Assembly: GCA_963829055.1 (NCBI GenBank)
Contig: CAWHHI010000012.1
Location: 32,001 to 96,000 of the forward strand
DNA: 64,000 nt
Direction: 5' to 3'
Source: an uncultured Gemmatimonadaceae bacterium
Lineage (GTDB): Bacteria; Gemmatimonadota; Gemmatimonadetes; Gemmatimonadales; Gemmatimonadaceae
Position numbers and translations under genes: made by a program. This document shows, piece by piece, positions 3,171 through 60,995 of the stretch (the first letter of the stretch is position 1; each line of letters opens with the position of its first letter). Below the pieces are notes generated by a model that saw only the letters and a list, made by a program, of their open reading frames with translations, was not told the origin of the DNA and did no database searches.

Positions 3171-3789
3171 ATGGCCGGCGTAGAACCAACTGTGTTCGTT
3201 GTGGACGACGACATTTCGGTGCGCGAATCATTGAAGTTGCTCATCGAGTCGGCCGGTTGGCTCCGGAAATATTCGGGTCCGGACATCAATTTCTGGCGCG
3301 TCCGCGCGTGCTGAAGCCGAGCTGCTTGCTGCTCGACTCCGTCCTCCCGGATATCAGTGGTTACGATCTCCAGAATCTGCTCGCCGATCGCACCGAAATG
3401 CCGATCATCTTCATCACCGGTTACGGCGATGTGCCGGCAACAACCCGTGCCATGAAAGCCGGCGCCGTGGATTTTTTACCAAGCCGATCGCCGACGACAT
3501 GCTTTTGCAAGCGATTCGTGACGCGATCGACCGAAGCACGGAAGTGCTGAGCAACACCGAGCACATGCGAGTGCTCAGGGACAGCTACGCATCGCTCAGC
3601 AGTCGGCAACGGGAGGTAATGGCGCTCGTCGTCAGTGGCTGTTTGAACAAGCAGGCGGGAGGCGAGCTCGGAATCAGCGAAATCACCGTGAAGGCGCATC
3701 GCGGCGAAGTGATGCGCAAGATGAACGCCGCTTCCTTGCCCGATCTCGTGAGAATGGCCGCGCGGCTCGGCCTCCAGGACGCACGTTAG
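3171..3789 (+). CDS. FixJ/NarL-family response regulator, frameshifted
   Basis: ATG at 3171 reads MAGVEPTVFVVDDDISVRESL; later frames give IIFITGYGDVP...AGAVDF and LSSRQREVMALVVSGCLNKQAGGELGISEITVKAHRG. Confidence 0.88.
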
Positions 3790-3814
3790 GCGCGGTGCCG
3801 CCGATCAGACGTCA

Positions 3815-4931
3815 TCAGCCGAATGTGAACGCGTAGCCCGCTACGCCTGCATCCAGAAACTCGATTTCAACTCGCCGCTCGGTGATCAGTAGCGGCTGAC
3901 GAATCAACTGGTACAGCCGCTGATATGTCAATGTGCCATTGCCCTGCTCGTCGACGTCGAAGCCGTGCGCTGCGCCTGCCGACTGGCCATCGATGAGCAC
4001 CCGAAAGTCGATAGACTTCCCCGGCGTCGTTGGTCCCATGACGAGATTCACGTCCCGCGCGTGAAACTGAAGCACGACGCGGCCGCTCGCCATCGTTCAA
4101 CACGACTGGCTCGTTCTCGAACGTCCAGCGGCCGGTGAGCGCCCACTGATTGAGCTTTAGCTGCGTAGGCGCGGTATAGGCGTGCGCGTTGCCCGCGCAC
4201 GGCGCCACCCGGCGACGCAAAGCTCTGGGTGCGGGCTCCCGAGGTAGCTCTCGGGCGACCGCAGGTCGTCCAAATCGGCTGCCACCTCAGCACCGCGCGG
4301 GTCCGCGGCGATCAGGTCGCCACTAACGTCTCTGGCGCCTGCCTCCGTTCAATAGCTGTTGCAGAACGCGCTCGGATTCGTTATACGCGCCCTCGCCGAA
4401 GTGGTGGTGCCGAATACGACCCATGGCATCCACGAGGAGTACAGCGCTGGCCAGTAATTGTTTCGAAAACGCGTTCCAGACCGCGTACTCGTTGTCGATC
4501 GCGATCGGATAGCTGACTCGCATGTCTTGCGCCGCGCGGCGGAGGTTGCCGATGTTGTGCTCGAATGAGAACTCAGGAGTGTGCACACCAAGCACGACCA
4601 GGCCCTGGTCCCGGTATTTCTCCGCCCACGCGCGGACATACGGTAGCTGCCGCAGCCAGTTGATGCAGGTGTACGTCCAGAAGTTGACGAGCACCACCTT
4701 CCCGCGACGCGCCGGCGGTCGTCAAAGGCGGCGAATTGAGCCACGCGCTTGCGGTCCGCAGCGAGGCGAGCTGGCCTTCACTGGCAGCGTTTCGCTCGAG
4801 CGCGTCGTCTGGTGTGCGAAACGAGGTAGAGGCCGAGTCCAATGCCGGCCATGGCAGCGGCTCCTGCGCCCAAGAGGCGGCGGCGGTCGTGATCGATGGA
4901 GTGTGACTTATCGATGTGTCGGTGTTGCCAA
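3815..4931 (-). CDS. DipZ-like thioredoxin/redoxin protein (Trx domain + C-terminal DipZ domain) with Tat-like leader, frameshifted
   Basis: WLNSPPLT, VLVNFWTYTCINWLRQLPYV, VHTPEFSFEH, C-terminal RLYQLIRQ...YAFTFG; leader DRRRLLGAGAAA. Confidence 0.85.
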
Positions 4932-4947
4932 TCCGGTTGTGGTCGAG

Positions 4948-6035
4948 CTACTCGATCCGCAGGCTCTGCTCCATCGCGTAGCACTACATCTACGACATAG
5001 ACGTCGAATGCGGCGAGCCGCGTCGACCACTCGGGCGTGAGGGCGTTCGACGCACTGACCACGACACGGTCGATGTAGTTGTCGAAGACCGCCCACGGGT
5101 TGGACACTGGTCGACGCGGGTCCGATATCCTACGCCGGGCTTGGTGCGTAGCCAGCGCCGTCCTGCCGCCTGCTTCACGTCCTCCAATGAACTCGGCCTG
5201 GACGTCCACGTCGGCATTGGTACCCGTGCGGCGCGACGTGGCCACCCACCAGCGTGTCCCAGTCCAGCTTCGCGGATCTCTTCGACCTGGGCGAAATAAG
5301 CCTGGAACGTCCTGGGCGACGCGCGAACCGGCGCCACGGCATCCAGCCCGGGAAGACCACGTCGACGACCATCAGCACCCGCTGCGCGGGCGCGGAGATG
5401 AAGATGTTCCCGGCTCGTGCCCGTTGCCGTGGTACGAGAGCTCGAGCACCTGGCCGCCGACGCGCGAGCGTGTAACGGTCGGCGGAACGTCACCGTCGGC
5501 AGCGGCCGGTTCGGATCCGCGACGCGCGTGAGCAGCCGGAGCGGTCTCCTCGTGCGCGATGATGACGGGCTGACCGCCAAGGCCTTCGCTGCCGCCGATG
5601 TGATCGATGTGCGAGTGGCTGTAGACGACGTGCGTGATCGGCTTGGTCGTGACTTCGGCGATGGCCTGCGGAATGTGCGCCGCGTAGACTGGGGGCGCAT
5701 CGATCACCACGACGCCGTTTTCGTGCACCAGGAACATCGACTGGTACGCGCCTTCGGTCAGCATGTGAAGGCCGCTCCCGAGGTCCTGGCAGGCGGTAAC
5801 CTTTGGCCGGGATCGATGGCCGGCCCCTGGGCCGACGCGGGCACGTCCATGTACTTGCCGGTCCTTTCCCCGATTGGCGCGATCACGGGCATCTGCGGAT
5901 ACGGCTCTCCCACCGCCCCCTGAACGCTACCCTCTTCGCGTGATGCCGCCTTGGTGTCGGCGACGCACCCACAGATGCTCGCGACGGCATGCCTAACGTG
6001 ATGGCACGAGCGGCGACTCCGACTGCGGTTGACAT
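4948..6035 (-). CDS. MBL-fold metallo-hydrolase, frameshifted
   Basis: YQSMFLVHENGVVVIDAPP...VVYSHSHIDHIGG (HxHxDH), HEPG, VDVVFPGWMPW, LVGGHV; ends MEQSLRIE*. Confidence 0.85.
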
Positions 6036-6309
6036 GTGATTCACCAGTGTGAATGTGTGACCTTATGGACTGGGAGGACTCGGTGCCTAACACACGAAGG
6101 CGACATTACCCGAAACCGATGCGCCGCTCTATTGCACGATGGTATCGACCGGACAGGCGGCATTGGCGCCAGGGCGTACGAGAGAGGCCCCGGCGCGACT
6201 GGCGGAGGCTCTCTCGTAAGTGCCGCGTCAACTGGCTGCTGGCAGTGCGCGCAGCGTGGAGGATCGAGGCGTTAGGCTTGCCATGCTGTAGCCGTCCCGC
6301 GGCGGCGTG

Positions 6310-6800
6310 ACGTGCGTCGCCCGATCGGCGGCAGCGACAGCTCGAGTCCATCGCCATCGTAACCAGGTCGGCCAGCGATTCCGCCCGCATTTGCGCATCA
6401 CCTTCCGGGGTGTGCCTCACGGTGATCTCGCTGATACCTAACGCCGCACCGACCTGCTGTTCAGTGGCCGCGACCCGCGCCATCACCTCCTGTTCGCGGC
6501 TGCGTGAGGCATCCGTCCGGAGTTCGATCAACGTGTTCCTCACTGAGCACCGGCGGCTCGGGCGATCGCGTGACCAATGGCGCCGAGGAGCACATCGTCG
6601 CCAGTGGCTTCAACAGAAACTCGGTCGCGCCCGCCTCATCGCCCGATCGGTCGTCGAATGTCACTCTCACCAGTGACCACGATCACCGGCGTCTCCCTGC
6701 GCTCGCCAGCGACGCGCCGCAGCAGTCGAACCTGGAGCTCGAACCCGGCAACATCCAGCCCAGCAGCGGAACAGCAGCGCCGGACGCGCGAGAAGCTCGG
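6310..6800 (-). pseudogene. Decayed FixJ-family response regulator remnant
   Basis: Fragments GATEFLLKP, REQEVMARV, LGISEITV, MRAESLADLVTMA spread across frames with apparent deletions. Confidence 0.6.
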
Positions 6801-11984: not shown

Positions 11985-12879
11985 ACGAGTGGCCTCCCGG
12001 CCCCGGCGAGATGGACGGCTCCGAGTTCGATCGCCGTGTGCCCCGCGCGATGGCCAATGCGCTCCGGGGCCCAAGCAATCTTCCGCGACGAGGAGTCTTG
12101 GCCTCCATTCGATGGTATCGATCGATACGTAGCATTCCGTCCCACAATGGCAGCTGACCACCGCGCCTAACGTCACCGCCGCGCCCTGGGAATGGCCTAT
12201 GTGTAGCCAGAGCTCGCCGACGCGGTGCGCCATGCCGACGCGTGCCTCAGGCTCGATGTCGCCGCACTCGAGCGCTTGAGTGAACCAGCGCGCCACCGAC
12301 CGAGCGAAGGCGGTTTTGATTCGAGCCCGTCCTGGGCCCGGTCGCGCCGGTGGCGCTGATCACCGTGAGAGCAGCGATATGTTGTGCTCCCGTCGCTCTC
12401 GACGGCAAAGGCTAGTCGACTGCACATGAGGCGATGGACTGCTTACCGATCATCATTCTGCGCGCCGAACTTCTGCCCGCGCGAACGCGCGTTGCGCACG
12501 GCCCAAACGGGGCGTGGCGAGTGCCGACGTTAGGCAGCAGTTGTCGAGCGAAGCACCACGGAAAGTGCGTAGACTGAACGCGGCGCCGACCACGAATGCC
12601 AGCCGGGCAAGCTGGCCTTGGCCAGTCGTGGTTCCGACGACTCCCCTCGCGACTGGCACACGCCGGATGCATGCGCACTCTCGCAAACGTGCGTGTTCAC
12701 AAGGGCTTACATTCGCCCCTTCCCACGACTTCACGCCCAGCGGGTCCGCACTACCGTCGTCGTCAATGCCGTTGGGGACCGTTGGGGACCCGTTCCGACG
12801 CCTCAAAACGAGACGAGCGGCGACCGCTTCGTTAGGCGGCCACCGCTCGCAATTCGTTATCCGACAATCACCTATGCAG

Positions 12880-13602: not shown

Positions 13603-14133
13603 ATGCGCTGGGTACTCGGAATCGTCGGCGTCCTCGTCGTCCTCGTCGCGATCGTCCTCGTCGTTGGAGCAATGTTGCCCAAGTCGCACGTGGCATCGAG
13701 GTCCGCGCGCTACACCGCGTCGCCCGACACACTCTGGGCATCACTCACGAACGCGAGAGCGTTCCCCACGTGGCGCACCGACGTCACACGCGTCGAGACG
13801 TTGCCTGACGAGAATGCACAGCGCGGCTGGCGCGAACACGGCAAGAACGGCGTCATCCCATACCGCGTCGTCGAGAGTGTCGCGCCACGCCGACTCGTCA
13901 CTCGCATCGCGGACCCCAAGCTGCCGTTCGGCGGCACCTGGACGTACGACCTGACTCCCAATGGCGCCGGCACGCGCCTAACGATCACGGAGCACGGCGA
14001 AGTGTACAACCCGGTCTTCCGGTTCGTCTCCCGCTTCTTCATGGGCTACACCTCCACGATGGACGGCGTTCTCCGCGCCCTCGGAACGAAGCATGGCGAG
14101 ACCGTTACACCAGAATCGGCGGTTGCTGCCTGA
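13603..14133 (+). CDS. SRPBCC/START-like (polyketide cyclase-type) protein with N-terminal TM anchor
   Basis: GGAGG RBS before ATG 13603; MRWVLGIVGVLVVLVAIVLVVGAMLPKSH...LPFGGTWTYDL...ITEHGEVYNPVFRF. Confidence 0.85.
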   Translation: MRWVLGIVGVLVVLVAIVLVVGAMLPKSHVASRSARYTASPDTLWASLTNARAFPTWRTDVTRVETLPDENAQRGWREHGKNGVIPYRVVESVAPRRLVTRIADPKLPFGGTWTYDLTPNGAGTRLTITEHGEVYNPVFRFVSRFFMGYTSTMDGVLRALGTKHGETVTPESAVAA

Positions 14134-14598
14134 CGCGGAACCCTGACGCGGGAATCCGACGAAGCGCTCTGCACCGCGTGATGTCTCCGATACAACCGTT
14201 ACGCGACGCCAGACACACAATCACGCTGCCTAACAGACGGCGTTGATCGTTGCGTCGTTAGTGGCGCGCACTGTGTCGCACTCGTCCGCCTGCGTGGGTC
14301 GAGCCCTGCACATGTCGCCGCACTTCGCAATCAGCCACTTCTCGGGGTCTGCGGTTTCTTCGCCGCGTTCGGACTGCCCGGCGCTGCGGTCCGGTCCTGG
14401 CTCGCGACGACGCGTTATCGATTCGCTCGACGAAGCGACTGGGTCGTCGCGCGCGCACCCGCGGTCGATGCGACGGCGCTCTACGCTCTGAGCCATGCGG
14501 GCGGGCGGTGCCTGACAGGTGAAGCCGGCGGTTGTCTCGAGGCGCTCGGCGTCAGCGACTCTCCGAGCCTTTCAGGCCCAACGCCGGCCGGGATCGAG

Positions 14599-14949
14599 GT
14601 GCGTGTGATCGACCCGTCTTCCCCGACGTACGACGGCGTTGCGAATTCGCGGAGCGCTGCGTTGGGTGGTGCTGAAGACGAGTTGCTGGCCGACGCGGTG
14701 CGCGCGATTGGCCCCGATCGGTTCGCGCGGTTCTGGGCATCGTCGTCGAGGCCGGACGCCGCTTATCTCGCGGCCGCTGGCGTCAGCCTGGAGTCGTGGA
14801 CACAACAATGGCTGACGCGGACGTACGGGACCTTAGGCCAGCGACCCACGGTCCGTCTGAGCGAGGTCATGTGGCTGGCCATCGTCATGCCGCTCGTCCT
14901 CTTCGTTGCCGCTCGGCCACGCGAGCGCATCCTGGCGGACACGCGTTAG
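14599..14949 (+). pseudogene. C-terminal fragment of a hypothetical membrane protein
   Basis: Protein-like ORF (LLADAVRAIGPDRFARFW...C-terminal TM helix) lacking an evident N-terminus. Confidence 0.4.
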
Positions 14950-15194
14950 GCGTACACGACCGGGCGTGGCTCGTGCGCCACGGCCCGCCGCCGCTGCGCA
15001 CGCTTGCAATGTGCGGCACGTCGCCGGCACGGTTCCGGTCGCCGAACGTTGGGCCAGCCAGGCCGGGCCGCGATGGTTCCGCCAACTTCGTTAGGCACAC
15101 GTTGCTGCCACAGGATGTAGCGGCTTGGAACGGTTGCCGAGCCCGGCCGACTAATCGGTGTCGTCGGCACGATTGGGTCGATCGCGCTGGCCTG

Positions 15195-15340
15195 CGCGTT
15201 GCTCAGAGTCTTCTCAATTGCGTCGCACTCACTCCATTCTCGCGTACTTCGGCGAGGAAGTTGCGACGGGATGGCGCTGCCACAACTGCGACGCGTGCGA
15301 TCTGCTCGACACGTGGGACTCGGGCCCGGTGAAAGCCTAA
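15195..15340 (+). pseudogene. RecQ-type zinc-binding domain remnant
   Basis: ESSQ.RR.HSILAYFGEE...CHNCDAC resembles the RecQ CRRxxLLxYFGE...CxxCDxC motif; no helicase core upstream. Confidence 0.55.
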
Positions 15341-15418
15341 CGCCTGTTGTCGAGTACGTCGACGCCAATGCGCGCACCTACAGATGGGCTCCCCAAATTC
15401 AGCAACGAGGACGAATCG

Positions 15419-16633: not shown

Positions 16634-16722
16634 AAATGTGCTACACGTGCGCCTGCCTAACGATCAATGCGACTGCCGTTCGACCTCGATCACTCACGCC
16701 ATCACGCCTAACGCGACGTACA

Positions 16723-22183: not shown

Positions 22184-22688
22184 GGTTCATCGCGCCGGGC
22201 CGGTGGGGACTGCGATTGGGCGGATCGGTACGGCGAAACGACCGGATCCGGCTTTGCATTCAGGCATCATCGCGCCGCGGTCGGTGGGAACGACGATGAC
22301 GCGGATGACGCGGAAGACGGCCGGATACGGCTTTGCATTCGACACTGGCCCTCGCCGGGCCGTGATTGAACATTGGGAACGGCCGCTCGGGACGCAGGAG
22401 TCTCCCGAGCGGCCGTCCCAAGAATTCACGGCTCGTGGCGTGAGGAGCCGGATCTACCGAGCAGTATCCTGCTTCTTCCGCGTCATCGCGCGATCGCAGT
22501 TCCCGTTGGCCGGGCGCGATGATGCGTCGATGCAAAGCCGGATCCGGCCGTTTTGCCGTGTCATCCGCAAAATCGTAGTCCCCACCGGCCCGGCACGATG
22601 ATTCCTGAATGCGGAGCGCGAATCCGGTAGTTTCGCAGTACCGATCCGCCAGATCGTCAGTTCTCACCGGCCCCGGCGCGATGACGGC
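22183..22688. repeat. Composite long palindromic intergenic element (A-A-hairpin-A'-A')
   Basis: ~80-nt units CATCGCGCCG..CGGTGGG...CGGAT...CCGGAT.CGGCTTTGCATTC twice forward and twice inverted around hairpin GGGAACGGCCGCTCGGGA..TCCCGAGCGGCCGTCCC. Confidence 0.85.
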
Positions 22689-44500: not shown

Positions 44501-46353
44501 TCGAGCGCGTCGGCCACGGCCGCGATGAACGTAGCGCGCGGAAGTACTCCGGTGAGACCGTCCTCCGGGCCGGCATCTCGAGTCACACGTGCGTCAGAGG
44601 CCGTTACCGGTGACGTGACCTGACGCGGCTCCGAACAGGTCCATTCGCCCACGACTTCGTCGAACGCGCGGAATACCGCTGGGTCGAACTGCCGCCCGAC
44701 ATCGCGGCGCATGACGTCCATCGCCTCGTCGTGCGGGAGCGCGCGCTTGAAGCTGCGGTCGGACGTCAGCACATCGTAGACATCGGCGACGCACACGATG
44801 CGCGCGGCAAGCGGAATTCCTTCCCCCGCCAGGCCGTGTGGATAGCCGGAGCCGTCCCAGCATTCGTGGTGACATTCGACTATCGGGCGGACGTCCCAGG
44901 GAAAGTCGACGTCACGGAGCATCTCTGCGCCGGCGACAGGGTGGCGCCTAACGAGCGCCCACTCGTCCTCGGACAATCGCCCTGGCTTGTTCAGCAACTC
45001 GGCGGGCACAACGAGCTTCCCAATATCGTGAAGCAGCGCGCCCACCCGATACCAGAATACCATCGGCGCCGCGACACCCATCCGCGTCGCGACCGCGCAG
45101 GCGAGATCGGCGACGCGCTCGCAGTGGCCGTGCGTGTTGAGGTCCTTGGCCTCGATGGACTGACCCCATCGACGCACCACATCGATGAATTGCGCTTCCA
45201 GACGACGCGTGCGGCGCGAAAGATCGGCGACCGCAACGGTTCCACGGAGCTGCGACAAAGCGCGGTACGCGCGATTGAGCGCGATGATCGTCTCGCGATG
45301 GCGATCCTGACGGTGGTAGAGCTCCGCGCGCTCGGCTGCGATTTCCGCCGCAAGAATCGGATCGTCCTGGTCGCGCATCGCGGCCTCGGCACCCGAGAGT
45401 CGTTCCTCGGCGCGCGTGAGGTCGCCTCGCCCGCGCGCGACCATGGCGGCGGTGCGGAACGCGGCCGCCATCGCGCGCGGCTCGCGAATGCGGCGGGCCG
45501 TCTCGAGCGCCCGCTCGCAGACGTCGTGAGCGCGATCGATGTCGCCGCGACGCGCCAACAGTTCGGCGTGACGGAGCTCCGCGAATAGTACGGCCGCAGG
45601 TTCGCCCAACCCGGCGGCAACGGCTACCGCTTCGGCAAAGCCGGCATCCGACTCCGCCCATCGACGGGCGTCATCATGCAGCTCAGCCAGTGAGACCAGC
45701 GTTAGGCTCAAGTCTGCCGTCTGCCCGGTCGCCCGCAGTTCAGCCAGGCATTCTTCGTAGAGCGCGATCCCGTCATTCAGTGCGCCACGCGCGACCGCAA
45801 GGGCGGCGAGCGTTCGGAGTGCGGCGTTCGCTTCGCGTCCGTCGCCCGATGTGTGCGCCCATTGGCGAGCGCGCGTGGCTTCACGCTCCGCTCCGGCTAC
45901 GTCACCGCCCTCCCACAGGATGCGAGCGCGAAGGGACGCCGCGCGCGCGGAGTCCGCGTCTGCGCCAGCGGCCGCAGCAGACGCCAGCGCCAGCCTCGAG
46001 AATGTCGAGCGCCACCAATGGTTCTCCGGCGGAATTGGCTAAGCGTGCGCTGTTCAGTAGAGCGACAGGCACCACAGGGGCGTCGGTCGGTCCGACGGCG
46101 CGATGCAAGGCGCCTTCGTACAGTTCGCGTGCGAGGTCAGAGCGGCCACGCACTTCCGCCGCGCGAGCCTGCTCCAGGAGCGCGCCAGCCGAGTCGTCGG
46201 TGCTCCCGACGAGTCGCAGTCGCGAGGCATCGCCGCGCTCCGTTCCGAACGGACGTGCGGGCTTCACGCGTGACCGCGCTCGCCCAAGCGACGACAGCGC
46301 CGCGCAATAGATGCGCGGCGCGCCGGCAGATGAGACGAGCGCGCGTGAGGCAT
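41521..46353 (-). CDS. Large multidomain signalling protein: TPR - HD-GYP - GGDEF - STAND/AAA_16 NTPase - TPR; N-terminus broken by frameshift(s)
   Basis: 1396-aa ORF 41521..45711 with HDIGK / HHECWDGSGYP, RGGD-x5-GGDEF, FVGR...GEAGVGKST...LEDMQWAD...GNPL; TPR-like text continues in ORF 45902..46504; start uncertain. Confidence 0.88.
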
Positions 46354-46723
46354 GACGGTGACGAACAGGATGCGGGGTCGGCGCAGTGACCGAGGAACTC
46401 AACGTATGACGCCGGAACCCATCTGTTAGGCAACGTCGGGACCACGTTCGCGCGATGGCCGCGCCGACCGCGTTCGGTACGCCCTCGCATACGGCGCAGG
46501 CCATTCCCTAACGCCACGCCTACGAGCGGTGATATCGCACACGCGATGCGTGCGGCATGCGTCACGAAACCCGAAGCGAGGAGCGCGGTGCGGAACTCCT
46601 GTCCCGCGAGTCGCGTGTCAGACGCGTCTGGCGAAACACGCGAAGACTGGCCATTCGCGGGATCGCTCTTCGGTGTTGGAACATGGCCTGGTTCACTATC
46701 TCTCCGGCTCAGCCCTGCTTCGT

Positions 46724-47475
46724 TCAATCGGCGGCTGCGGGCGCCAGCGTCCGTCTGTCACGCACGGCGACAGCGTGCCCTCGTCCATAGGCGAAGTACA
46801 CGACCATACCGATCGCTAGCCAGATCACGAGGCGCGCCCACGTCGCGACCGGCAGCACGAGCATCTGACGACGCAGACCGTGGCACCCAGGATCGGAACC
46901 CAGGGCATACCCGGCGTGCGGAATGGACGTTCGAGATCTGGTGCGGTCTTCCGCAGAATGATGATCCCGACGCAGACGAGCGTGAACGCGAGCAGCGTTC
47001 CCATGCTCACGAGCTGGCTGAGCGTCGTTAGGGGAAGAAGCCCGGCGGCGATCGCGACAATGACACCGGTGACCAAGCGTGCTCACGTGCGGCGTCCGAA
47101 ACCTTCACGACAGGGCTGAACCACGTCAGTCCCGTCGCTTCGATTCCAACGGCGATTGGATCCGCGACGTTGAGCTTCGCATAGGGCACGATCCCGATCA
47201 GCACGATCGCGACGCAATGTACAACACGGTGCATAACGCGAGAGACACGAGAATGCCGAACGGGAGGTCCCGTTGTGGGTTCTTCGATTCCTGCGCGGCG
47301 GTGGAAACCGCGTCGAAGCCGATGTAGGCGAAGAACATCACCGCCGCTCCCCGAAGTACACCGCTCCAGCCGAAGCTGCCGAAGATACCTGTGTTCGGCG
47401 GGATGAACGGCGTGAGATTCTCTCGACGCACGTAAGTCGCAGCTCGGCGACGGATTTCTTGGTGAAGAGAGACAT
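46724..47475 (-). pseudogene. APC-family amino acid permease with two large internal deletions
   Basis: MSLFTKKSVAELR joins directly to ENLTPFIP..FFAYIGFDAVSTAAQESKNPQRDLP; FSPVVKV joins directly to RTPHVST..GTLLAF..RPFRTP. Confidence 0.75.
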
Positions 47476-47668
47476 CGTCGGGAATCGGGAACGGGGAATC
47501 GGGAATCGATCGCGCCGGCCCTGTCCCCAACATGCACGACGATCACGCCGGCGAGCGTCCGACGGGCGTGAGAACGGTGTGCGAGCCGAGTGGTCGCGTT
47601 GTTAGGCAGCCAGCAAGCAGCCCCGGTCACCGTTCCCGCCCGATTCCCGATTCCCGATTCCCGATTCC

Positions 47669-48372
47669 CTATTCCCGACTGAGCCGATATCCCGTCTTGA
47701 GCACCGTCAGAATGTGCCGCGGGTTTGCCGGGTCCGACTCGAGCTTGCGCCGAAGCTCGGCGATGTGCGTATCCACCGTGCGGCTCATCACCGAGTCGTC
47801 GTAGCCCCACACTTCCTTGAGCAGCTCGATGCGCGTCGCCACCTGCCCGTTGCGTCGGAGCAGTGCCACCAGCAGGTCATATTCCTTCGGCCGCAGTGCG
47901 ACCGCCGCGCCATCACGCGTCACCGTGTGGCGTGCCGCGTCGACCCGCACATCGCCGAACCCGGAAGGCGCGTCCGCCTGTGACGCGCGGCGCGTCGCCG
48001 TTAGGCCGGGTCGCGCGGCGGAGCAGCGCGTCGATCCGCGCCAGAAGCTCCATGAGTCCGAACGGCTTCGTGACGTAGTCATCGGCGCCGAAGCGGAAGC
48101 CGCGGACCTTGTCCGCCTCTTCACCTAACGCCGTCAGGACGAGGACTGGCGTGGTGTCCCCGTCGTCGCGCAGCGTTCGGAGGACACGATAGCCGTCAGT
48201 ATCCGGCAGCATCAGGTCGAGCACGATGAGGTCCGGACGCTTCTCACGTGCGAGCGCCAGCCCCGCGCGCGCCGTCGTTCGCGCAGAGTACCGAATAACC
48301 CTCGAACTCGAGGTTGCTCTGCAGCCCGCGCGCGAGCTTGTCGTTGTCTTCGATGAGGAGAACGGTCGGCAT
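47669..48372 (-). CDS. OmpR/PhoB-family response regulator, frameshifted
   Basis: [60 protein letters not shown]. Confidence 0.92.
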
Positions 48373-50459: not shown

Positions 50460-51506
50460 GTGACCACGCCTGCCCGCGCCCCGAACCTAACGCCGACCGA
50501 CGGTACCGCGACGGCGACCGACCGGCACATGCCGCACAGCGTCATGCGCGACCGCGAGCGGGCGGCTCGCGTTCGACCTTCCACCACGCGAGATCCGCGA
50601 CGCACTGGCCGACCCCGGCACCAAGCTCTGGGTCGACATCGACAGCACGAGTCGTCACCAGCACGCGGTGCTCGAGAAGCTGTTCAAGTTCCACCCGCTG
50701 ACCATCGAGGACACGCTCAACCCGAACAGCCGGGTGAAGATCGAGGCCTACGATGGATTTCTGTTCGTCGTGCTGCGCGCGATCCGCTTCTGCGACACGA
50801 CGACCGATCCCTACGACCTCGAGACCGAAAACCTCTACATCTACATCGGCGCGAACTACGTCGTCAGCGTTCACGCAGGCGAGTCACAGACGGTGGACAC
50901 GGTCGCCGACCTGGTGCGACGGAGCCCCGATCTGTTCGACCGCGGTCCCGCTCGCCTCGCGCACACGCTCTGCGACACAGCGATCGATGCGTTCTTCCCG
51001 ATCCTCGATCGCGTCGACGAGTTCGTCGACGGGCTCGAGTCGCGCGTCTTCGAGCGGTTCGATGAGACGAGCGCTGCACGACATCTTCGCGCTGAAGCGC
51101 ACGGTGCTGTCGCTCCGACGGTACCTCGCGCCGCAGCGCGAGATCTTCAACGTGCTCACGAACCGGCCGTCGCCGCTGCTCCCGCCGGAATCGCAGCTGT
51201 ACTTCCGAGACGTCTACGATCACGTGCTGCGCATCAACGACTCGCTCGACACGTTCCGCGAGCTTCTGAGCAGCACGCTCGACAGCTACCTCACGCAGGT
51301 CTCGAACCGGCTCGGGTCGATCACGAAGGGGCTGTCGGTGATCGCGACGCTCAGCGTCCCGTTCGTCGTCATCAGCGGCATGTGGGGGATGAACTTCGGG
51401 CGAGATTCCGCTGTCAGGGCTACCCGCACGGATTCCTGCTGATGGTGTCCTGCAGCTCGCGTTAGGTGTCGTGCTGGTCGCGATCCTTCGCTGGAAGAAG
51501 CTCTGA
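50460..51506 (+). CDS. corA: CorA-family Mg/Co transporter, frameshifted
   Basis: LWVDID, FHPLTIEDTL, YFRDVYDH, GMWGMNF signature. Confidence 0.9.
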
Positions 51507-52546: not shown

Positions 52547-54292
52547 ATGTGCGCGATCGAGCGTGGCGCCGCAGGGGTCGCACGCGTCCTACAAGGCACG
52601 CCGCCGGCGTGCGCGATTGGCCCATCTTCTGTCTCCGGAACTTCGATCTTCGTGCGCCTCGTCACCGATTCGCTGGTTCGTCTGTCACGTGGTGTCTCGA
52701 TCATCTTCGGTGTCGCCGGCGTCTCTTTCGCGGCAGCCCTGTACGTCTCCGGCCGAGCGTCCGGCGCCCTCGCGCTGAGTCTCGGCCTGTACGCCATTGC
52801 CTTCGCGTTGATCGCGCTCGTGTTTGCCACGCGCGCGACGATCTCCTCTGCGCTCGCGGCAGCAACATCGGACGCGGACCGGGCCGACCCCGGAATTCAG
52901 ACGCTCGCGTCGTCGACAGCCGGCAACGTAACCGCGCCGGACCCGGCGACGGACGGATCTCCAACGGCACCGCCGCTCAGTCCTCGCTTCAATCTTCTAC
53001 ACCCGACCTGCGCGATCCGCTCACCGGACTCGCGACGCGTCTGCTGCTCCACGACCGGGTCGGTCACGCACTCGCGCGGGCGCACCGGCACGAGCGCGCC
53101 GTGGTCGATCATGCTGCTCGACCTGGATGGCTTCCGCTCGGTCAACGACGCGTTCGGCTACGCCGCTGGCGACCGCGTCCTGGCGGCGGTCGCCACTCGA
53201 CTGAATGCCGACACTGCGCGGCGGCGACACGGCAGTCACGACCCGGCGCCGATGAGTTCGCTCTGCTGCTCGAGGACATGGCCGACGAGAGCAACTTCGT
53301 ACAGATCAGCGAGCGCGTGAGCGACGCGCTCGCGCGGCCCATCACCATCGACGGACGCGAGCTCACGATCAGCGCGTGCACAGGCATCGCGCAGGCGACG
53401 CCGGATGACGACGTGGACAGCCTGCTGCGCAACGCCGACGCGGCGCTCGCCGCGGCAAAGCGCCGCGGTCGCGGGTCCTGCGAAGTGTTCTCGGACCGGA
53501 TTCGCTCGACGCTCGTGGACCGCGTGGAGCTCGAGGGCGAGCTCCGCGCCGCGATCGAGAACAAGCGCGTTCGAGATCGAATACCAGCCAATCGTCATCC
53601 TGCACAACCGGCGGATCGCCGGCGTCGAGGCGCTGCTGCGCTGGCGTCACCCGTCGCGCGGAGAGATCCCGCCGTCACGTTCCTGCCGGTCGCTGACGAG
53701 TTGGGCCTCTCCTCCGTGCTCGGTCGGTGGGTCCTGCTCGACAGCCTGCACACAGGTGAAGAAGTGGCAGGACGACGTCGCGAGCGCCCGCGCGCTGACG
53801 CTGACCGTCAACGTGTCTCGCGCGCAGCTGCGTCAGCCGTCGCTCATCGCGGATGTCGCGAACGCGCTCGAGCTTTCGGGCCTCGATCCACGGCGCCTCG
53901 TGCTCGAAGTCTCCGATGCCGTGCTGCTCGACGATGCCGGCACCGCGCTCGCGCGCCTCCAGTCGCTGAAGTCACTCGGCGTCCGCATCGCGATCGACGA
54001 CTTTGGCGCGCGCCAGGCGGCGCTTCACCAGCTGCCACGCATTCCGGTGGACATCCTGAAGATCGACAAGGCGTTCATCGACCGCGTCGGTCGCGGCGGC
54101 GTGAGCGTGGCTCACGTCGTGCTCGCGTTAGGCAAGTCGATGCGCCTGCGGACGGTCGCCGAGGGCGTCGAGGCGGAGGAGCAGGTCGCGGAGCTGCTGC
54201 GCCTCAAGTGCGAGTTCGGGCAGGGGCTGTTGTTCTCGCGCCCGCTGTCGCCCGCGGGCGTCGGAGCGCTCCTCCGCGCCGATCGGCGATAG
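52547..54292 (+). CDS. Membrane-anchored GGDEF-EAL protein, frameshifted; start approximate
   Basis: DPLTGL, LDLDGFRSVNDAFGYAAGD, GADEF; YQPIV, EALLRW, IAIDDFG, LKIDKAF, VAEGVE, GQGLLFSRP. Confidence 0.88.
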
Positions 54293-54320: not shown

Positions 54321-55147
54321 TCAGGCCGTCGCGTGCCAGAACTGGCGCACGAGATTCTGCGACACCGTGCGCCGATACTCCGCCGTCGAGCGCACATCGT
54401 CGATCGGCGTAATCTCTGCGCCGACCGCGGCTACGGCCGCATCGATCCCCTGCCCGGCCGCGAGCGCTCGCTCAGCCGCGCGCGCACGGACGACCACCGG
54501 GCCCACCGAGCCTAACGCGATACGCGGCGACGTCCGAGCGGACGCCAGCCATGACGACCTTCGAGATGGCCTGTGCGGCACGCGTGCCGACCTTCCGAAA
54601 CCACTGGCGTCCCGTGATCGGCCGGAATCTCGACCGCGACGATGAGCTCGTCGGGACGAAGGACGCTCGTCCGGTATCCCGAGTAGAACTCCGTGAACGG
54701 GATGCGCCGCTCGGCACCCGCACTCCGGACGACGACGACCGCCTCAGCCGCCGCGAACACCGGCAGCGTGTCTCCCGCGGGCGAGCCGTTCGCGATGTTC
54801 CCGCCAATCGTGCCGCGGTTCTGGATCTGCACGCCGCCAACCTGCCGCGCCGCGTCGACGAGCATCGGCAGTCGCTGCTTCACGAGCCGGGACCGCGTTA
54901 GGCTCGTGTACGTCGCGAGCGCACCGAGCGACGAGGACGTCGCCGCGCATCTCGATGCGTCGGAGCGGCTCGAGCGCCCAGAGATCGAGGAAGCGCGTGG
55001 CTGACAGCGTCCCGAAGTTGAGCGACTACGTACAGATCGGTCGCGCCCGCGAGCGGCGACGAGCGGCCCGTCATCCCGCAGCATCGTGAGCGCCTCGCGG
55101 ACCGATCGCGGCCGACGCAGCGTGAGCGGCGTGACCGCGGTTCTCAC
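54321..55147 (-). CDS. Xanthine dehydrogenase/CoxM-family FAD-binding subunit, frameshifted
   Basis: QIQNRGTIGGNIANGSPAGD, FRKVGTRAAQAISKV, PIDDVRSTAEYRR. Confidence 0.9.
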
Positions 55148-55621
55148 GTCGGCACGCTCGATGACGACATGCCTGCTGCCGCCGCTGTGCGACTCGCCCG
55201 CTTCGCCGCGCGAATGGCGCGATAGATCGCCTCGTAGCCCGTGCACCGGCACAGATTCCCGGCGAGCGCTTCCTGCATCTGCTTTCGGCGTTGGGTCCGG
55301 CCCGAGCGACATTGCCGCCATGATCATGCCGGGCGTGCAGATCCCGCACTGCGCGCCGACGTGATCCATGAACGCACGCTGCAGCGCCTGCGCTTCCGCG
55401 CCCTCGATCGTCTGCACGTCGCGGCCTTCCACCTGCGCGAACGGTACGAGGCACGATACGACCGCCTGGCCGTCGACGAGCACGGTGCACGCGCCGCACT
55501 CGCCTTCACCGCACCCTTCCTTCGTGCCCGTGAGCTCGCACTCCTCACGAAGCACGTCGAGCAGCCGTCGCATCGGATGCGCGTCGATGTCGACGCCTCG
55601 GCCGTTGAGCTGGAATTGCAT
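55144..55621 (-). CDS. Xanthine dehydrogenase/CoxS-family 2Fe-2S subunit, frameshifted
   Basis: GTKEGCGEGECGACTV, SCL, QCGICTPGMIM; NLCRCTGY in shifted frame. Confidence 0.92.
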
Positions 55622-55623
55622 CG

Positions 55624-57757
55624 TCAGAGCACTCGCTTCGCCAATGACTGCCGGAAAATGACCTCCGGTACCGCGGGCACCTCGCGCACGTCCACCCCAA
55701 GACTTCGGATCGCGTTCACGATGGCGGGGGCCGGGCCATCCATGGGCAGCTCGCCCAGTCCCTTCGCGCCGAACGGGCCGCCAGGGTACGGGTTCTCGAC
55801 CAGCACGACGTCGATCGGCGGCGTGTCGAGCGTCGTCGGGATCGTGTAGTTCGTCAGCTGTGCGTTGGCCATCGCGCCATCACGCATGACGACGTGCTCG
55901 AGCAGCGCGAAGCCTAACGCCTGAGCGGTTCCGCCCTCGATCTGACCGATCGGCGAGCGCCGGATGAATCGCCTTGCCGACATCCACGCACAGCCGTGAG
56001 ACGCAACGGCCGCACCTCGAGCGTCACGGGATCGAGCTCCACCTCGGCGACGTTGCACCCCCACCCGTACGTCGCGTACGCATCGCCCGGTACGTCTCGT
56101 CGTCCCACTGAATCCACTCGGGCTGCTCGTACTCCGCCTCGACGCGCAGCGGACCGTGCTCGCGGAAATACTCGGCCGGTGTCGCGTCGCCGATCCGCCG
56201 GCGCAGTTCGGCCGCCGCCCGCTGCAGGATGCCGCCGACGACCATGCAGGTGCGCGATGCGACCGTCGGCCCGCTGTCGGGGACGCGCGAGGTGTCCGGC
56301 TGCGCGACCTCGACCGATTCGTACGGCACGCCTAACGCGTCGGCGACGATCTGCGCGTGCATCGTGCGCGTGCCCTGCCCGATCTCGGTGCTCGACGTGA
56401 GCACCCGAACGCCGCGCTCCGTGAGCTCGAGCGCCGCACGCGATGCGAGGCGCAGCTCTCCGCTGCCGGTGAATCCCGAGCCATGATAGAACAGCGACAC
56501 GCCAATGCCGTCGCCGTTCGTACCCGCCACTGCCTGCTTTTCATGGTACCGGGACTTCCGCACCGCTCGACTCAGCGTCTCGAGCGCGCTGCAGTCGCTC
56601 GCCGAGCGTCTGGCCGGTCGCAGTGGTGTCGCCAGGCCGCAACGCGTTGAGCTCCCGCAGCTGGACCGGGTCCATACCTAACGCTTCGGCGATCCGGTCC
56701 ATGTGGACTTCCATCGCGAACTGCGTCTGCGGCGCGCCGAAGCCGCGGAACGCACCGTTCGGCGGCGTGTTCGTCATCACGGCGCGCCCGACAATGCGCG
56801 TGTTGTCGCACCGATACGGGCCGGCGGCGTGGATCGTTCCGCGCGAGAGGACGACGGGACTCAGCGTGACATAGGCGCCGCCATCCAGCATCACGTCAAT
56901 GTCCATCGCGACAATGCGACCGTCGCGCGTGACGCCGGTCCGATGCCGCACCACGGACGGATGCCGCTTGGTCGTCGCCACCATGTCCTCGGTGCGATCG
57001 TAGATGATCTTCACCGGCCGGCCCGACTTGAGCGCGAGGAGCGCGGCGTGTCCCGCGATCACCGACGGGAATTCCTCCTTGCCGCCGAATCCGCCGCCGG
57101 TCTCGGTCTGCACGACGCGCACGTGCGACACCGCATCGCCCAACAGTGCGACGAGCGCCTTGTGCACGTAGAACGGGCACTGAATGGAGCCGTGGACTGC
57201 GATGCCGCCGTCCTCCGGAACGGCGATCACCCCGTTAGGCTCGATGTACACGTGCTCCTGCGCGCCGGTGCGGTACGTCCCCTCGACGATGACGTCCGCG
57301 CTCGACATCGCGGCGTCGACGTCACCCTTCTCGATGTGGATGTGCTTGAAGACAGTCGTCGGAAGCTTCGGCGTCGAGCACGGCCGGCTCGCGCTCGTAG
57401 TCGATCTCGACGCGCGCGGCGAGCAGCTTCTCGCGATCGGCGTGCGCGAGCAGCAGAATCGGCTCGGCCGCGTGCCTGACGTCTCGCTCCGACGAGGCAC
57501 GGCTGATCGACCTCGATGAGCGCGACGACGTTGGTGCCCGGAATGTCGCGGTAGTCGACGACGGTGAAGTCCGTCTCGTCGAACTGGCGACGGACTGCCG
57601 TTATGCGTCCGCGCGGAATCTCGGAGCGGATGGTCCGGCCCCAGAGCATTCCCGGGAACACGAGGTCATCGGCGTAGACCGCCGTGCCCGTCGCTTTCCC
57701 GATACCGTCCTTGCGCGCGACGCTTCGTCCGACGGCGCGTTCGCTGGAGTTCGCCAT
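55624..57757 (-). CDS. Xanthine dehydrogenase-family molybdopterin-binding subunit, frameshifted
   Basis: KATGTAVYADD, EHVYIEP, GGGFGGKE, AFRGFGAPQ, EIGQG, GQIEGG, GAKGLGELP. Confidence 0.92.
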
Positions 57758-58392: not shown

Positions 58393-59412
58393 GTGAGCCA
58401 GTCGACCTCCGCTCATCACGACCCGGGCACGCGAGCGGCCATCGACCGCGCCGCGGCCGTGACAGAGGCACCCACTGAAGCGATCACGTTCCCGAACGGG
58501 CATCGAATCCGCGTGGGCACCGCCAGTTGGACGGATCGCACCCTGCTGCCCACCGGTCTGTTCTACCCCTCCGGCGTCGAGTCCGCCGAGGAACGGCTTC
58601 GCTACTACGCGAATCGCTTCCCGCTCGTCGAGGTCGATTCGTCGTACTATGGCCTACCCGTGCGACGGAACGCCGAGCTCTGGGCGAGCCGAACGCCTGA
58701 CGGATTTCGGTTCGACATCAAGGCCTTCGCGCTGATGACCGGGCATCCGACCGAGGTCGCTCGGCTCCCGAAGACGCTGCGCGATGCACTGCCACCCACG
58801 ATGGCGTCGCAGAAACGCGTCTACGCCCGTGATCTACCGCCGGAGATCTACGAGGAAGTCTGGGCGCTTTTCCGCGACGCCATCGAGCCGCTCATCGCCG
58901 CGGACAAACTTGGCTCCGTGCTGCTGCAGTATCCCCAGTGGTTCATGCCGGGCACCGCCGCGCGCAACGCCATTCTCGAAGCACGCGATCGGCTCGCCGG
59001 AGTGCCGTGCACGATCGAGTTCCGGAATCGCGCGTGGTTCGATGAGCGCAGTCGCGAGCGCAACCTCGCCTTCCTCCGCGACAACGCGCTGCCCTACGTT
59101 ATCGTCGATGAGCCTCAAGGGCTTCCTAACAGCGTGCCGCCCATCGCGGCGGTCACCGCGCCTTCACTCGCGATCGTGCGCTTTCACGGGCGTCGTGATG
59201 ACATTTGGAACCGGCGCGGCGTGAAGGTGGTGGACAAGTATCGCTATCTCTACGACCGGGACGAGCTCGCGACTTGGGTGCCCCGCGTCCTCGAAGTTGC
59301 CGAGAAGGCAGACGACACACACGTCGTGTTCAACAACTGCTACGCGAATTACGGTACTACCAACGCGCTCGAGATGAGCGCCATGCTGGCCGAGGCGGCT
59401 ACACACGGGTAG
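58393..59412 (+). CDS. DUF72 (YecE/YunF family) protein
   Basis: RVGTASW, YYANRFPLVEVDSSYY, FRFDIKA, LLQYP, EFRN, VDEP, RFHGR, YRYLY, FNN. Confidence 0.93.
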   Translation: MSQSTSAHHDPGTRAAIDRAAAVTEAPTEAITFPNGHRIRVGTASWTDRTLLPTGLFYPSGVESAEERLRYYANRFPLVEVDSSYYGLPVRRNAELWASRTPDGFRFDIKAFALMTGHPTEVARLPKTLRDALPPTMASQKRVYARDLPPEIYEEVWALFRDAIEPLIAADKLGSVLLQYPQWFMPGTAARNAILEARDRLAGVPCTIEFRNRAWFDERSRERNLAFLRDNALPYVIVDEPQGLPNSVPPIAAVTAPSLAIVRFHGRRDDIWNRRGVKVVDKYRYLYDRDELATWVPRVLEVAEKADDTHVVFNNCYANYGTTNALEMSAMLAEAATHG

Positions 59413-59447
59413 CGCCGTGCGGCCCGATCCGAGCAGCGGGAGTGGCA

Positions 59448-60452
59448 ATGACTGATCACACCAGGCTCGTCCGCGATCACCTCGCGGACGGATCACCACT
59501 GCCAGCCATTCCCCTCATCATCTCGGAGCCGATCGTCATGCGCGATCGCATGGATCTGCCGGCGGTCCGCTCGGAACGGCCGGCGGTCCGCCTGCGATTC
59601 GTGTGGCGCGGGAAAGCTCACGATCCGATGTTCGTGTTTCAGAATTGCCGTGAGCCGAGCTGGGAGCGAGTCGACATCACGGTCGAGAACCCGCTCGAAG
59701 CGGCGTTCGTCATGGAGCGCACGCGCCACGGGCCGGGCGTGATCCCGAGTACCATGCATCAATGGCGCGACGTTAGGGTCTTCGGAAACGGGGTGCTCGA
59801 ACGAGGATTCTGGCATCGCCGCGGCGACTTTGACGAAAACAACGAGCACGCCCGGTTCGACTCGGTTTCCGTGTACGGCTACACTGATTGCGGTTGGCTC
59901 ATCGAGGGCACGCAGTCGAAGGAGCATCTGTTCACGCATTGCCGCGCGAACGGCGACACGACGGGTCGCGTTGGGGTGCGCTCCTTCGGGTCGTTTCAGT
60001 GGATCGGCGGAGCAATGAGCGGCCACGCCGAAAGTTGCTTTGCGCTCGGTCCGCCCTGCGACGTCGTACGCATCGAAGGCGCTGGCTGTGAGACGTCCGC
60101 CCGCCTCCTTACGGCGAAGGGGCCTACGGGGAACGCGTATCCGGTGCTGCTCGAGCAGGTGCGATTCATGACCGATCGTCTGCATCCGGACGGCGTGATG
60201 ATCGATTTCGGCGCGCCAGGCCCGCTCACCATCCGCGGCGGTCAGTTCGGCAATGGGCACCAGCCGATCCCAACGATTCGGATGCGGACCGTGGCCGATC
60301 TGGCGTTCATCTGCGAAGGGGCCGCGTTCGACGCGTGGGGCTCCCACGAACACGCCGAACACATCTTCGACCTTCCGACGAATACCGGGCGCGACGTGCG
60401 CATCGTCGCCAACCTCTTCGCCGACGCGAACGGAATGGCGCGCCGTCGATAG
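59448..60452 (+). CDS. Hypothetical protein, possible right-handed beta-helix
   Basis: Intact ORF from ATG 59448 after GGGAG; repeated short beta-strand/Gly-turn segments; no family recognised. Confidence 0.6.
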   Translation: MTDHTRLVRDHLADGSPLPAIPLIISEPIVMRDRMDLPAVRSERPAVRLRFVWRGKAHDPMFVFQNCREPSWERVDITVENPLEAAFVMERTRHGPGVIPSTMHQWRDVRVFGNGVLERGFWHRRGDFDENNEHARFDSVSVYGYTDCGWLIEGTQSKEHLFTHCRANGDTTGRVGVRSFGSFQWIGGAMSGHAESCFALGPPCDVVRIEGAGCETSARLLTAKGPTGNAYPVLLEQVRFMTDRLHPDGVMIDFGAPGPLTIRGGQFGNGHQPIPTIRMRTVADLAFICEGAAFDAWGSHEHAEHIFDLPTNTGRDVRIVANLFADANGMARRR

Positions 60453-60570
60453 ACGCCGCTGGACGCCGTTCTGTAGTCACGTGCCCTTCGTGTCGCAGTG
60501 GTCGTCATCGGGCATGGTCCCGTGCGCAAGATCGAGGCGCGGAACCACCCGCTGCCTATAGGGAAGGGCG

Positions 60571-60855
60571 ATGAGCGATCCAACGAACCGGTCACACACA
60601 CCACCCTCCGTCACCGGACGCCGACGGCGCTTCACCGGCGCGCATCCGTACCCGGCGCTTCCACAATCGCGCTTGCCATTGCTGCGCGGGATGCTGTGGC
60701 TGACCTGGGCCGCCTGCCTCGCGATCGTCGACAGCGTGCTCGAGCTTGTGCCGGGCACCACGCGGTCTCGGCGTCGCAAGCGCAACCGCGGTGCGTCAGA
60801 GCCGGCAGCGGTGCCGCGTAGTCCGCGACTCCCTTCACTGACACCTACCGGATGA
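60571..60855 (+). CDS. Possible small membrane protein
   Basis: GGAAGG RBS-like sequence, one hydrophobic segment (MLWLTWAACLAIV). Confidence 0.35.
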   Translation: MSDPTNRSHTPPSVTGRRRRFTGAHPYPALPQSRLPLLRGMLWLTWAACLAIVDSVLELVPGTTRSRRRKRNRGASEPAAVPRSPRLPSLTPTG

Positions 60856-60995
60856 CACCCGCGTACGAGATCGAACGCGGGCGCGTCGCGCTGACTGCCT
60901 CGCCTAACGTGTTCAATTCGAGGGGGTCGGCCGCGCTGAGTCGATCACCCGCGGATCGCGGGCGTTAGTCCGCTTCACACCAAACAGTGTCGTCG

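Follow-up and report, generated by a model that had tools for sequence, protein, structure and literature searches.

Sequence-specific tags of a bacterium's own DNA are, to our knowledge, firmly known from two proteobacterial families only, with HIP1 as a recent third candidate. The DNA uptake sequences (DUS) of Neisseriaceae are described as existing in dialects (PMC3630211), and the uptake signal sequence (USS) of Pasteurellaceae is described as leaving a trace in the proteome (PMC2817400). HIP1 (GCGATCGC) is a hyper-abundant octamer whose function long stayed obscure and which is reported to raise transformation (PMC13756078); it is portrayed as conserved and quasi-periodic, present roughly once per gene, and a role as a signal for DNA uptake or transformation is now proposed for it (PMC13756078; PMC5861425). 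Here we analyse a 64-kb stretch of a Gemmatimonadaceae metagenome-assembled genome (MAG), positions 32001-96000 of its contig C12 (CAWHHI010000012.1) and called the window below, in which the heptamer CCTAACG, part of the octamer GCCTAACG (other strand CGTTAGGC), recurs far beyond chance. The whole genome, labelled G000, has 7,784,024 bases in 20 contigs at a GC content of ~66.5%; other G numbers denote further genomes compared, and L numbers denote loci or contigs compared.

As in DUS, the word is short and asymmetric, lies on both strands at about one copy per kilobase in genes and in spacers, is clade-specific and has dialects; it differs from DUS in having 8 letters as against 10-12, in occurring in different phyla, in being equal to an integron core site, in lacking an excess of inverted pairs, and in that no ComP_DUS-type pilin was found in eight word-rich genomes. 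With USS it shares a similar core length (9 bp in USS), an orientation-blind and fairly even spacing and an imprint on codons and peptides, but the word has no AT-rich flanking segments. HIP1 is likewise a hyper-abundant octamer; however, it is palindromic, phylum-wide and read by methylases, whereas the word is asymmetric, not its own reverse complement and patchy by genus. Chi, the FtsK-orienting polar sequences (KOPS) and the architecture-imparting sequences (AIMS) are also over-represented 8-mers read by DNA-processing machines, but they are skewed to one replication strand, while our word is unskewed and its excess far larger. Unlike repetitive extragenic palindromes (REP) or miniature inverted-repeat transposable elements (MITE), the word is not embedded in any longer conserved unit, its flanks being unconserved. 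Finally, it has the identical spelling, flanking base included, of the core site of integron attC and attI (C-GTTAGGC) and bounds the attC hairpins of its own and its relatives' arrays, yet unlike attC boxes more than 99% of its copies are solitary and were born by point substitution. We found no published description of the word in the main texts of the literature on Gemmatimonad and Verrucomicrobia uptake sequences and octamers, and the full-text occurrences of the two 8-mers were primer and construct sequences only.

In the window CCTAACG has 50 exact matches, 30 on the plus and 20 on the minus strand, whereas 100 dinucleotide-preserving shuffles gave a mean of 3.16 (sd 1.72) and a maximum of 8, so that 0 of 100 reached 50. 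An earlier note on this DNA had listed the copies by hand, and all 50 of its coordinates were recovered exactly, with no others; its count of a purine 5' of the heptamer in 46 of 50 copies also agrees with our recount (G 36, A 10, C 4). The control heptamers CCTAAGG, GCTAACG and CCTTACG are scarce in the window (2, 3 and 5). Genome-wide, CCTAACG occurs 6391 times (3154 plus, 3237 minus), about one per 1.2 kb, as against only 65, 194 and 177 occurrences of the same three controls. The full word is the 8-mer GCCTAACG, with 5004 copies against an expectation of 131 under an order-1 and 102 under an order-2 Markov model, and by z-score it ranks first among all 7- and 8-mers under both models. Across the 6391 aligned copies, position -1 is G in 78% and A in 13%, and there is no conservation of the flanks past positions -2/+1. 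Of the genome's CTAAC pentamers 82% belong to the word, which is surrounded by graded, tolerated 8-mer variants (ACCTAACG 13-fold, GCCTAACA 10-fold and GCATAACG 4.4-fold over-represented), while none of its one-mismatch neighbours is emptied in G000.

The imprint on codons was followed with gene calls from a crude home-made caller, which gave 6845 genes covering 75% of the sequence and which undercalls owing to 1-bp indels. Whole copies within called genes number 4124, compared with 325-370 when synonymous codons are shuffled within each gene (10 shuffles) and 237-271 when they are resampled genome-wide (five resamplings), so the enrichment persists under codon-aware nulls. No less than 56% of TTA, 20% of CTA, 14% of CCT and 8% of AGG codons lie inside the word, whose genic copies are read as CCT-AAC (1201), C-CTA-ACG (783), xCG-TTA-GGx (1595) or GTT-AGG (519), the non-stop copies being about equally sense (1984) and antisense (2114). 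The word also supplies 259 of the 855 TAA and 213 of the 1753 TAG stops of the genome, and the space between called genes, ~24.5% of the sequence, accommodates 1821 copies (28.5%). In the 4374 genes called with confidence, the word fills 62% of Pro-Asn-(G..) sites where codon usage predicts 6.4%, and 29% of (xCG)-Leu-Gly sites where it predicts 0.9%; the dipeptide Pro-Asn itself is raised, with an observed-to-expected ratio of 1.39 (1.23 for Asn-Pro). Copies are evenly distributed along genes, and their number per gene is Poisson. Because the saturation of these sites is far above the codon-usage expectation, the pressure acts on DNA and not on proteins. The earlier note had argued as much from the window, and the codon-aware nulls, the synonymous-site saturation and the ordinary high-GC codons found in relatives' orthologues all bear it out.

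The word has no strand bias genome-wide and no replichore bias, its ratio on contig C16 being 98 plus to 143 minus before and 145 plus to 155 minus after the switch of GC skew and gene strand near 550 kb; the earlier note's case against Chi or KOPS, made from a weak strand bias in the window, therefore holds on the genome scale, where the ratio is unchanged across that switch. Spacing is more even than random: gaps below 200 bp number 408 where 977 are expected, those of 400-1600 bp number 3606 where 2885 are expected, and the depletion of close pairs is equal for all four orientation combinations. Such even spacing is expected if a second copy on one fragment adds little. Inverted pairs of attC size (plus/minus at 40-160 bp) show no excess in G000.

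How the copies came about was read from a comparison of orthologues in five genomes of the same genus, whose syntenic DNA is 70-83% identical to the window. Where relatives have no copy, they carry ordinary high-GC spellings such as CCGAACG, CCTGACG, CCTCACG, CCGCACG or CGCTCGG, which differ from the word by 1-3 substitutions of every type and at every position. The copy at 20709-20715 (minus) is CGCTCGG at the same place in G001 and G003; that at 21157-21163 (plus; frame C-CTA-ACG of gene 20729-22183) is CCTCACG in G001; and that at 21734-21740 (plus; frame CCT-AAC-G of the same gene) is CCGAACG in G001 and G003. At 21988-21994 (plus, C-CTA-ACG) G001 retains the copy and G003 has TCTGACG, and at 23461-23467 (plus) G001 again retains it while G003 and G004 have CCGCACG. 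The copy at 29665-29671 (plus, C-CTA-ACG) is kept in G001, G002 and G005 and is CCTGACG in G003 and G004, that at 30619-30625 (plus, C-CTA-ACG) is GCTGACG or TCTCGCG in relatives, and that at 34180-34186 (plus) is CCGCACG in G002. The copy at 27265-27271 (minus), in a Cys/Met-metabolism gene (26488-27612), stands at the same position of that gene in three of four related loci (L001, L002 and L004), and also in G002-G004. In all, 8 of 31 aligned window copies are shared with same-genus relatives. Copies therefore arise in place through point substitutions, and because only 8 of the 31 are shared, their turnover is fast and continuing. A bias of the very-short-patch repair type is an unlikely source, because copies are created by each kind of substitution at each position.

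The stretch also recurs outside this assembly. Positions 20001-30000 of the window are present in 20 soil, rhizosphere and sediment sequencing runs of 16 studies (41-62% of sampled 31-mers), and contigs of four runs are 98-99% alike to positions 20001-40000, with 706 differences. Only one among the 40 best-supported of these touches a copy, a G to A change at 26431 that turns the copy at 26425-26431 (plus) into the tolerated CCTAACA in contigs of three other runs; the earlier note's concern that reads might show other bases at these sites is answered to that extent, and none of the refuting outcomes that it named has come about. Among the differences listed, contigs of three or four runs share 1-bp indels against the window at 24723, 26321, 28242, 31771 and 34137. 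Such 1-bp indel errors of the assembly lead to broken genes, and indel-split genes of the window include a TonB-dependent receptor in pieces at 34963-36393, 34181-34513 and 33384-34124 and an aldehyde-oxidase-like gene in pieces within 54512-57308.

The abundance of the word is a clade trait. All seven genomes of the genus are rich in it, the six others having 2501-5112 copies of the 8-mer; among further relatives the richest of all is G014, of another genus (6360), three more have 605, 345 and 194, and the 20 remaining relatives of the 31 genomes are at or below the reversed-word control. Across 301 Gemmatimonadota genomes, at least 450 copies are found in ten of family f1, G000 included, and in three of one f2 genus, and contrasts occur even within a genus, where 3896 and 4141 copies (G241 and G298) stand beside 66 (G294). 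These tallies include the unpublished word-poor genomes G013, G084, G123 and G204, on which no claim rests. In a second phylum, loci titled Chthoniobacterales and Verrucomicrobiae have 18 and 17 copies in 21 kb, and their genomes hold 1378 and 1535 8-mers compared with 249 and 359 for the controls. In an even sample of 251 Verrucomicrobiota genomes, the Chthoniobacterales genome G031 (GC 54.7%) alone exceeds its control, and it uses a longer dialect, GCCTAACGA, with A after the word in 91%. A strand polarity in G031, hinted at by the matches listed, was not upheld on a 394-kb contig, where the word is unskewed at 131 plus to 94 minus. High abundance is confined to some Gemmatimonadales genera and one narrow Chthoniobacterales clade.

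The spelling of the word points in a further direction, which the earlier note overlooked: it is the core site (R box) of integron attC and attI, including those of this genome. The integron box consensus is given as R'' = RYYYAAC and R' = GTTRRRY, and the R box of attI is described as bound in double-stranded form (PMC12901181). G000 carries an integron integrase gene, intI, at C20:208041-208958 (TIGR02249, 265.7 bits), which adjoins a cassette array at ~163-208 kb of C20 whose attC hairpins start with GCCTAACGC and end with ACGTTAGGC. In this array the word equals the R' core of attC plus a flanking C (C+GTTAGGC) in 8 of 8 letters, a match with a chance of ~1 in 33,000 by arithmetic, and GCCTAAC and GTTAGGC match both consensus boxes. 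Nearly all copies in word-poor relatives sit in cassette arrays, where 23 of 25 pairs are of the form GCCTAACA...C-GTTAGGC at 82-95 bp; these regularly spaced same-strand copies, taken at first for repetitive genes, are attC arrays. However, the full attC signature is found at only 11 sites in G000 as against 6391 copies, so that less than 0.5% of copies are in attC, and more than 99% are solitary, lying in conserved genes without partner box, L boxes or hairpin. None of the 50 window copies belongs to a cassette array, the array being on another contig (C20), and an attC-like hairpin suggested by a crude scan at window 14576-14667 folds no better than shuffles (z -0.36). Nor does the presence of the integrase track word abundance. 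intI scores above the cut-off in 125 of the 301 Gemmatimonadota genomes and, by hand count, in 9 of 10 word-rich and 35 of 60 word-poor f1 genomes. Both the rich G031 and the poor G033 have an intact gene, whereas that of G014, the richest genome, is split over three frames and that of G032 is broken.

The chromosomal integron itself spans C20:163000-209200, with an array of ~45 kb and an integrase co-oriented with most cassette genes. A truncated second integrase, with the N-terminal domain only, lies at C4:2862-3170, and solitary attC sites are seen at C20:119251/119424, C9:93485 and C10:178808/190168. Two IMG/VR contigs, L242 and L247 (GC 30% and 48%), carry same-strand runs of the word resembling cassette arrays with the same R' core; if they are cassette arrays, this R' core spelling is common far outside the phylum.

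The word is also carried by phages. A scan of IMG/VR for pairs of copies at a distance of 270-300 bp gave 80 loci, and most of the word-rich ones are same-strand, regular cassette arrays such as L228 (13 copies, all minus). Three contigs, by contrast with these arrays, are genuine phage DNA with host-like word density. L237, encoding a portal, a Mu-F-like protein, a protease and an HK97 capsid, has 9 copies (4 plus, 5 minus) where 0.45 are expected; its relative L313, encoding a DnaB-like helicase, large terminase, portal, capsid and endonuclease VII, has 11 (5 plus, 6 minus) where 1.0 is expected; and the unrelated L206, with large terminase, portal and protease genes, has 9 where 0.53 are expected. 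L237 and L313 (GC 64-65%) show no base preference after the word, and in L206 (GC 60%) 8 of the 9 copies are followed by A, as is usual in the Chthoniobacterales genome. The L237 capsid was not found in the 31 relatives searched, and no prophage was found in G000 by PF05065 or PF03354. A further IMG/VR contig of 8 kb, L267, has 23 copies (17 plus, 6 minus; 0.6 expected) and is almost without recognisable genes, being neither a regular array nor an annotated phage module.

The counts, the origin by point substitution, the patchy occurrence with its dialects and the identity with the R box of attC are results of the analysis, whereas DNA exchange as the source of the bias and the nature of the reader are inferred. 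The reading that we tentatively place first, while granting it somewhat less than an even chance, is that the word is a lineage-specific genomic tag comparable to DUS, USS and HIP1 and maintained by biased DNA exchange. A putative cell protein would read the double-stranded 8-mer in either orientation, and in the exchange of DNA between cells of the population, segments bearing the word would have the better chance of being taken up, kept or recombined. Point mutations towards the word would then outspread those away from it, by molecular drive possibly helped by weak selection, until rare codons and altered residues cost too much, at about one copy per 1.2 kb. The spelling would derive from the integron core (R' box), through a reader either with integrase-like specificity or evolved to recognise cassette ends. 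By analogy, density and strand symmetry agree with those of known uptake sequences, and genes for a PilQ-like type IV pilus secretin and for ComEC are present in G000. Also in its favour are the sharpness of the word with its graded variants, the even spacing, the saturated codon sites, the fast turnover, the clade-bound abundance, the separate Chthoniobacterales dialect and the effect on transformation reported for HIP1.

Several observations weigh against this exchange-driven tag. The secretin-like gene occurs in 30 of the 31 genomes and ComEC in all 31, and since word-poor relatives have both, they do not discriminate. A ComP_DUS-type pilin (PF16732) gave no match in the eight rich genomes G000-G006 and G014, weak matches being found only in word-poor genomes, and a pilin-like ORF (open reading frame) of G000 has orthologues in only 3 of 7 other rich genomes. 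Inverted pairs of terminator-like form, frequent for DUS, are not enriched in G000. The host-like density and mixed orientation of the word in three phage contigs fit an uptake drive only if these phages are temperate or often recombine with their hosts. Furthermore, an uptake model alone leaves the identity of the word with the integron R' box unexplained, and competence is not known to have been reported in this phylum. As to other candidate readers, the pilin-like ORF follows close kinship and not the word, and genes of high identity between G031 and G000 (794 kb of G031 compared) proved to be housekeeping genes and one patchy protein of 184 aa that does not follow it. This protein, which has no Pfam family, is encoded at L180:14917-15468 in G031 and at C4:414310-414825 in G000 (63-72% identical); it occurs in scattered Gemmatimonadales (6 of the 31 genomes) and looks horizontally moving.

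Another possibility is that the tag acts inside the cell, where a cytoplasmic recombination, repair or defence system would spare tagged DNA or repair it better, in the manner of Chi with RecBCD but regardless of orientation, and chromosomes and phages would both be selected to carry the word. The phage contigs mirror the word and apparently also the host dialect (A in 8 of 9 copies of L206), and the even, orientation-blind spacing suits a system that needs a copy near any break or entry point. However, the known Chi and KOPS words are strand-skewed and this one is not; the chance number of only ~100-130 copies is an unlikely start for a selected protective signal; the ~40-fold excess is far above the level known for Chi; and no counterpart of the L237 capsid was found in the 31 relatives searched. 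We regard an intracellular self tag as rather unlikely.

The identity with the R box suggests an account in which genomic copies would be treated as R boxes of the attI or attG kind by the integrase or an associated factor; in work by Loot dating from 2024, cited in PMC12901181, cassettes are said to have been inserted at genomic attG sites. Either the spread of copies would be favoured, for instance when strand exchange with attC aborts and leaves short conversion patches, or copies would be selected as docking or decoy sites. All 8 letters equal the R' core of the genome's own array and of the arrays of word-poor relatives, the tolerated variants (purine as first letter, A as eighth) are those occurring in attC, the word-rich f1 genomes have intI above the cut-off in 9 of 10 cases, and the second phylum with the word also has intI. 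On the other side stand the 35 of 60 poor f1 genomes with intI above the cut-off, G294 with its 66 copies included, and the word-poor G033; the split gene in the richest G014 and the broken one in G032; the 11 full attC sites compared with 6391 copies, without a surplus of attC-sized inverted pairs; and the creation of copies by substitutions of all types at all positions. No integrase reaction is known to write an 8-mer by point change. This integron-linked origin is improbable in our estimate. A related proposal, to which we give an equally low probability, is that the core site was taken over as a genome-wide signal, an R-box-specific protein, either the integrase or some partner, reading thousands of solitary copies and thereby tying DNA exchange to cassettes. 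If that were true, the system could fish cassette-bearing DNA from the environment, with the word accumulating as a by-product; alternatively, gene neighbourhoods could be docking or birth sites of cassettes and word-rich genomes their nurseries, attC arising from two nearby inverted copies; and the occurrence in two phyla would be convergence on a universal integron signal and not shared descent.

A binding or modification site is also doubtful: here a nucleoid protein or an asymmetric methyltransferase, with or without a nuclease, would make many evenly placed sites weakly advantageous in very large populations. The even spacing would suit this, as would the NNNNAC form with adenine fifth, which resembles the one-strand sites of type IIL and BREX (bacteriophage exclusion) methylases. 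We know of no enrichment of this size for methylation sites except that of HIP1. The MmeI-type methylase domain (PF20473), the sole methylase family searched, gave weak and partial matches both in rich and in poor genomes, and this model would not account for the R-box identity. HIP1, for its part, is described as read by two methylases (PMC13756078). That a systematic base-calling or assembly error of the long-read MAG makes the word, as the 1-bp indel errors relative to four other runs' contigs and the many broken genes had led us to suspect, can practically be dismissed, since the same word fills genomes assembled independently, both within the genus and in other genera, one copy has the same gene position in three of four related loci, no one-mismatch neighbour is depleted, and a single one of the 40 best-supported differences shown (706 in total) alters a copy, giving CCTAACA.

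In the window, nine of the reading frames described in the earlier note were compared with arithmetic on ORF coordinates, and all nine agree; besides five of those given above (21157, 21734, 21988, 29665 and 30619), these are the copy at 19566-19572 (plus; C-CTA-ACG, ORF 18091-20832) and those at 42455-42461 and 43730-43736 (plus; both xCG-TTA-GGx) and at 44947-44953 (plus; GTT-AGG) in the minus-strand gene 41521-45711. Its claim that the word supplies the stop of five ORFs stands for four of them in our crude gene calls: the minus-strand copy 3784-3790 holds the TAG (3787-3789) that ends ORF 3499-3789, copy 14944-14950 (minus) the TAG of ORF 14599-14949, copy 38998-39004 (minus) the TAG of a peptidase S9 gene (36751-39003), and copy 41500-41506 (plus) the TAA of a UbiE-like methyltransferase gene (40710-41504). 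For the fifth, copy 15336-15342 (plus), a TAA is present at 15338-15340 but is not among the gene-call stops. Two minus-strand ORFs also end in the word, ORF 34181-34513 at the CTA (34181-34183) of copy 34180-34186 and ORF 54512-55621 at the CTA (54512-54514) of copy 54511-54517 (plus), each read as TAG.

The other exact matches are, on the plus strand, at 5992-5998, 6437-6443, 12166-12172, 13977-13983, 16656-16662, 16707-16713, 22704-22710, 31999-32005, 46507-46513, 48124-48130, 50486-50492, 55913-55919, 56331-56337, 56677-56683 and 60903-60909, and on the minus strand at 6270-6276, 12528-12534, 12830-12836, 15089-15095, 27667-27673, 33266-33272, 41670-41676, 45700-45706, 47026-47032, 47999-48005, 51460-51466, 54126-54132, 54896-54902, 57233-57239 and 59771-59777. 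All six CCTAACA variants that the earlier note had named are present where it placed them: on the plus strand at 93-99, 6086-6092, 14229-14235 and 59125-59131, and on the minus strand at 46424-46430 and 47600-47606, where the plus strand reads TGTTAGG. The over-represented 8-mer that extends this variant, GCCTAACA, has a spelling like that on the R'' side of attC in word-poor relatives. The gene at 41521-45711 (minus) encodes a protein of 1396 aa in which an HD-GYP-like HD domain is joined to GGDEF, an AAA_16 ATPase and MalT-like TPR, an unusual signalling architecture. A separate, REP/MITE-like family, TGTCATTCCGAGCGGAG...AGTCGAGGAATC, lies in the window at ~22190-22560, 30730-30800 and 39040-39430; it has 100-290 copies in G000 and many in same-genus genomes, and metagenome contigs show it at very high depth. 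This family has no relation to the word and explains the other over-represented k-mers.

Stretches free of the word were considered as genomic islands, but the three longest, of 49.6, 44 and 31.5 kb, are situated at the ends of contigs and carry genes of the housekeeping kind. They are C6:5440-55038 and C6:591808-623330, both of raised GC (70-73%), and C11:1-44055. Genes of C6:5-55 kb have second copies on C16 with 47-60% aa identity (FtsK, DAHP synthase, leucyl aminopeptidase, TrpB and TrpG), and this divergent duplication makes it probable that the 49.6-kb stretch of the MAG is a chimera or of foreign origin. In word-free stretches of 7-16 kb the genes are ordinary, and by arithmetic there are about as many such stretches as an exponential tail predicts.

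These results place a word as extreme as the known self-DNA tags in bacteria that are widespread in soil and rhizosphere and belong to two phyla so far little studied, where it alters codon use and even dipeptide content. In MAGs, the density of the word can serve to expose DNA that is foreign or chimeric, as happened here, and phages that copy both word and dialect can help to assign hosts and to learn what the reader does. The integron-core spelling of the word suggests testable connections between DNA exchange and two unsolved questions, how gene cassettes originate and how they are captured.

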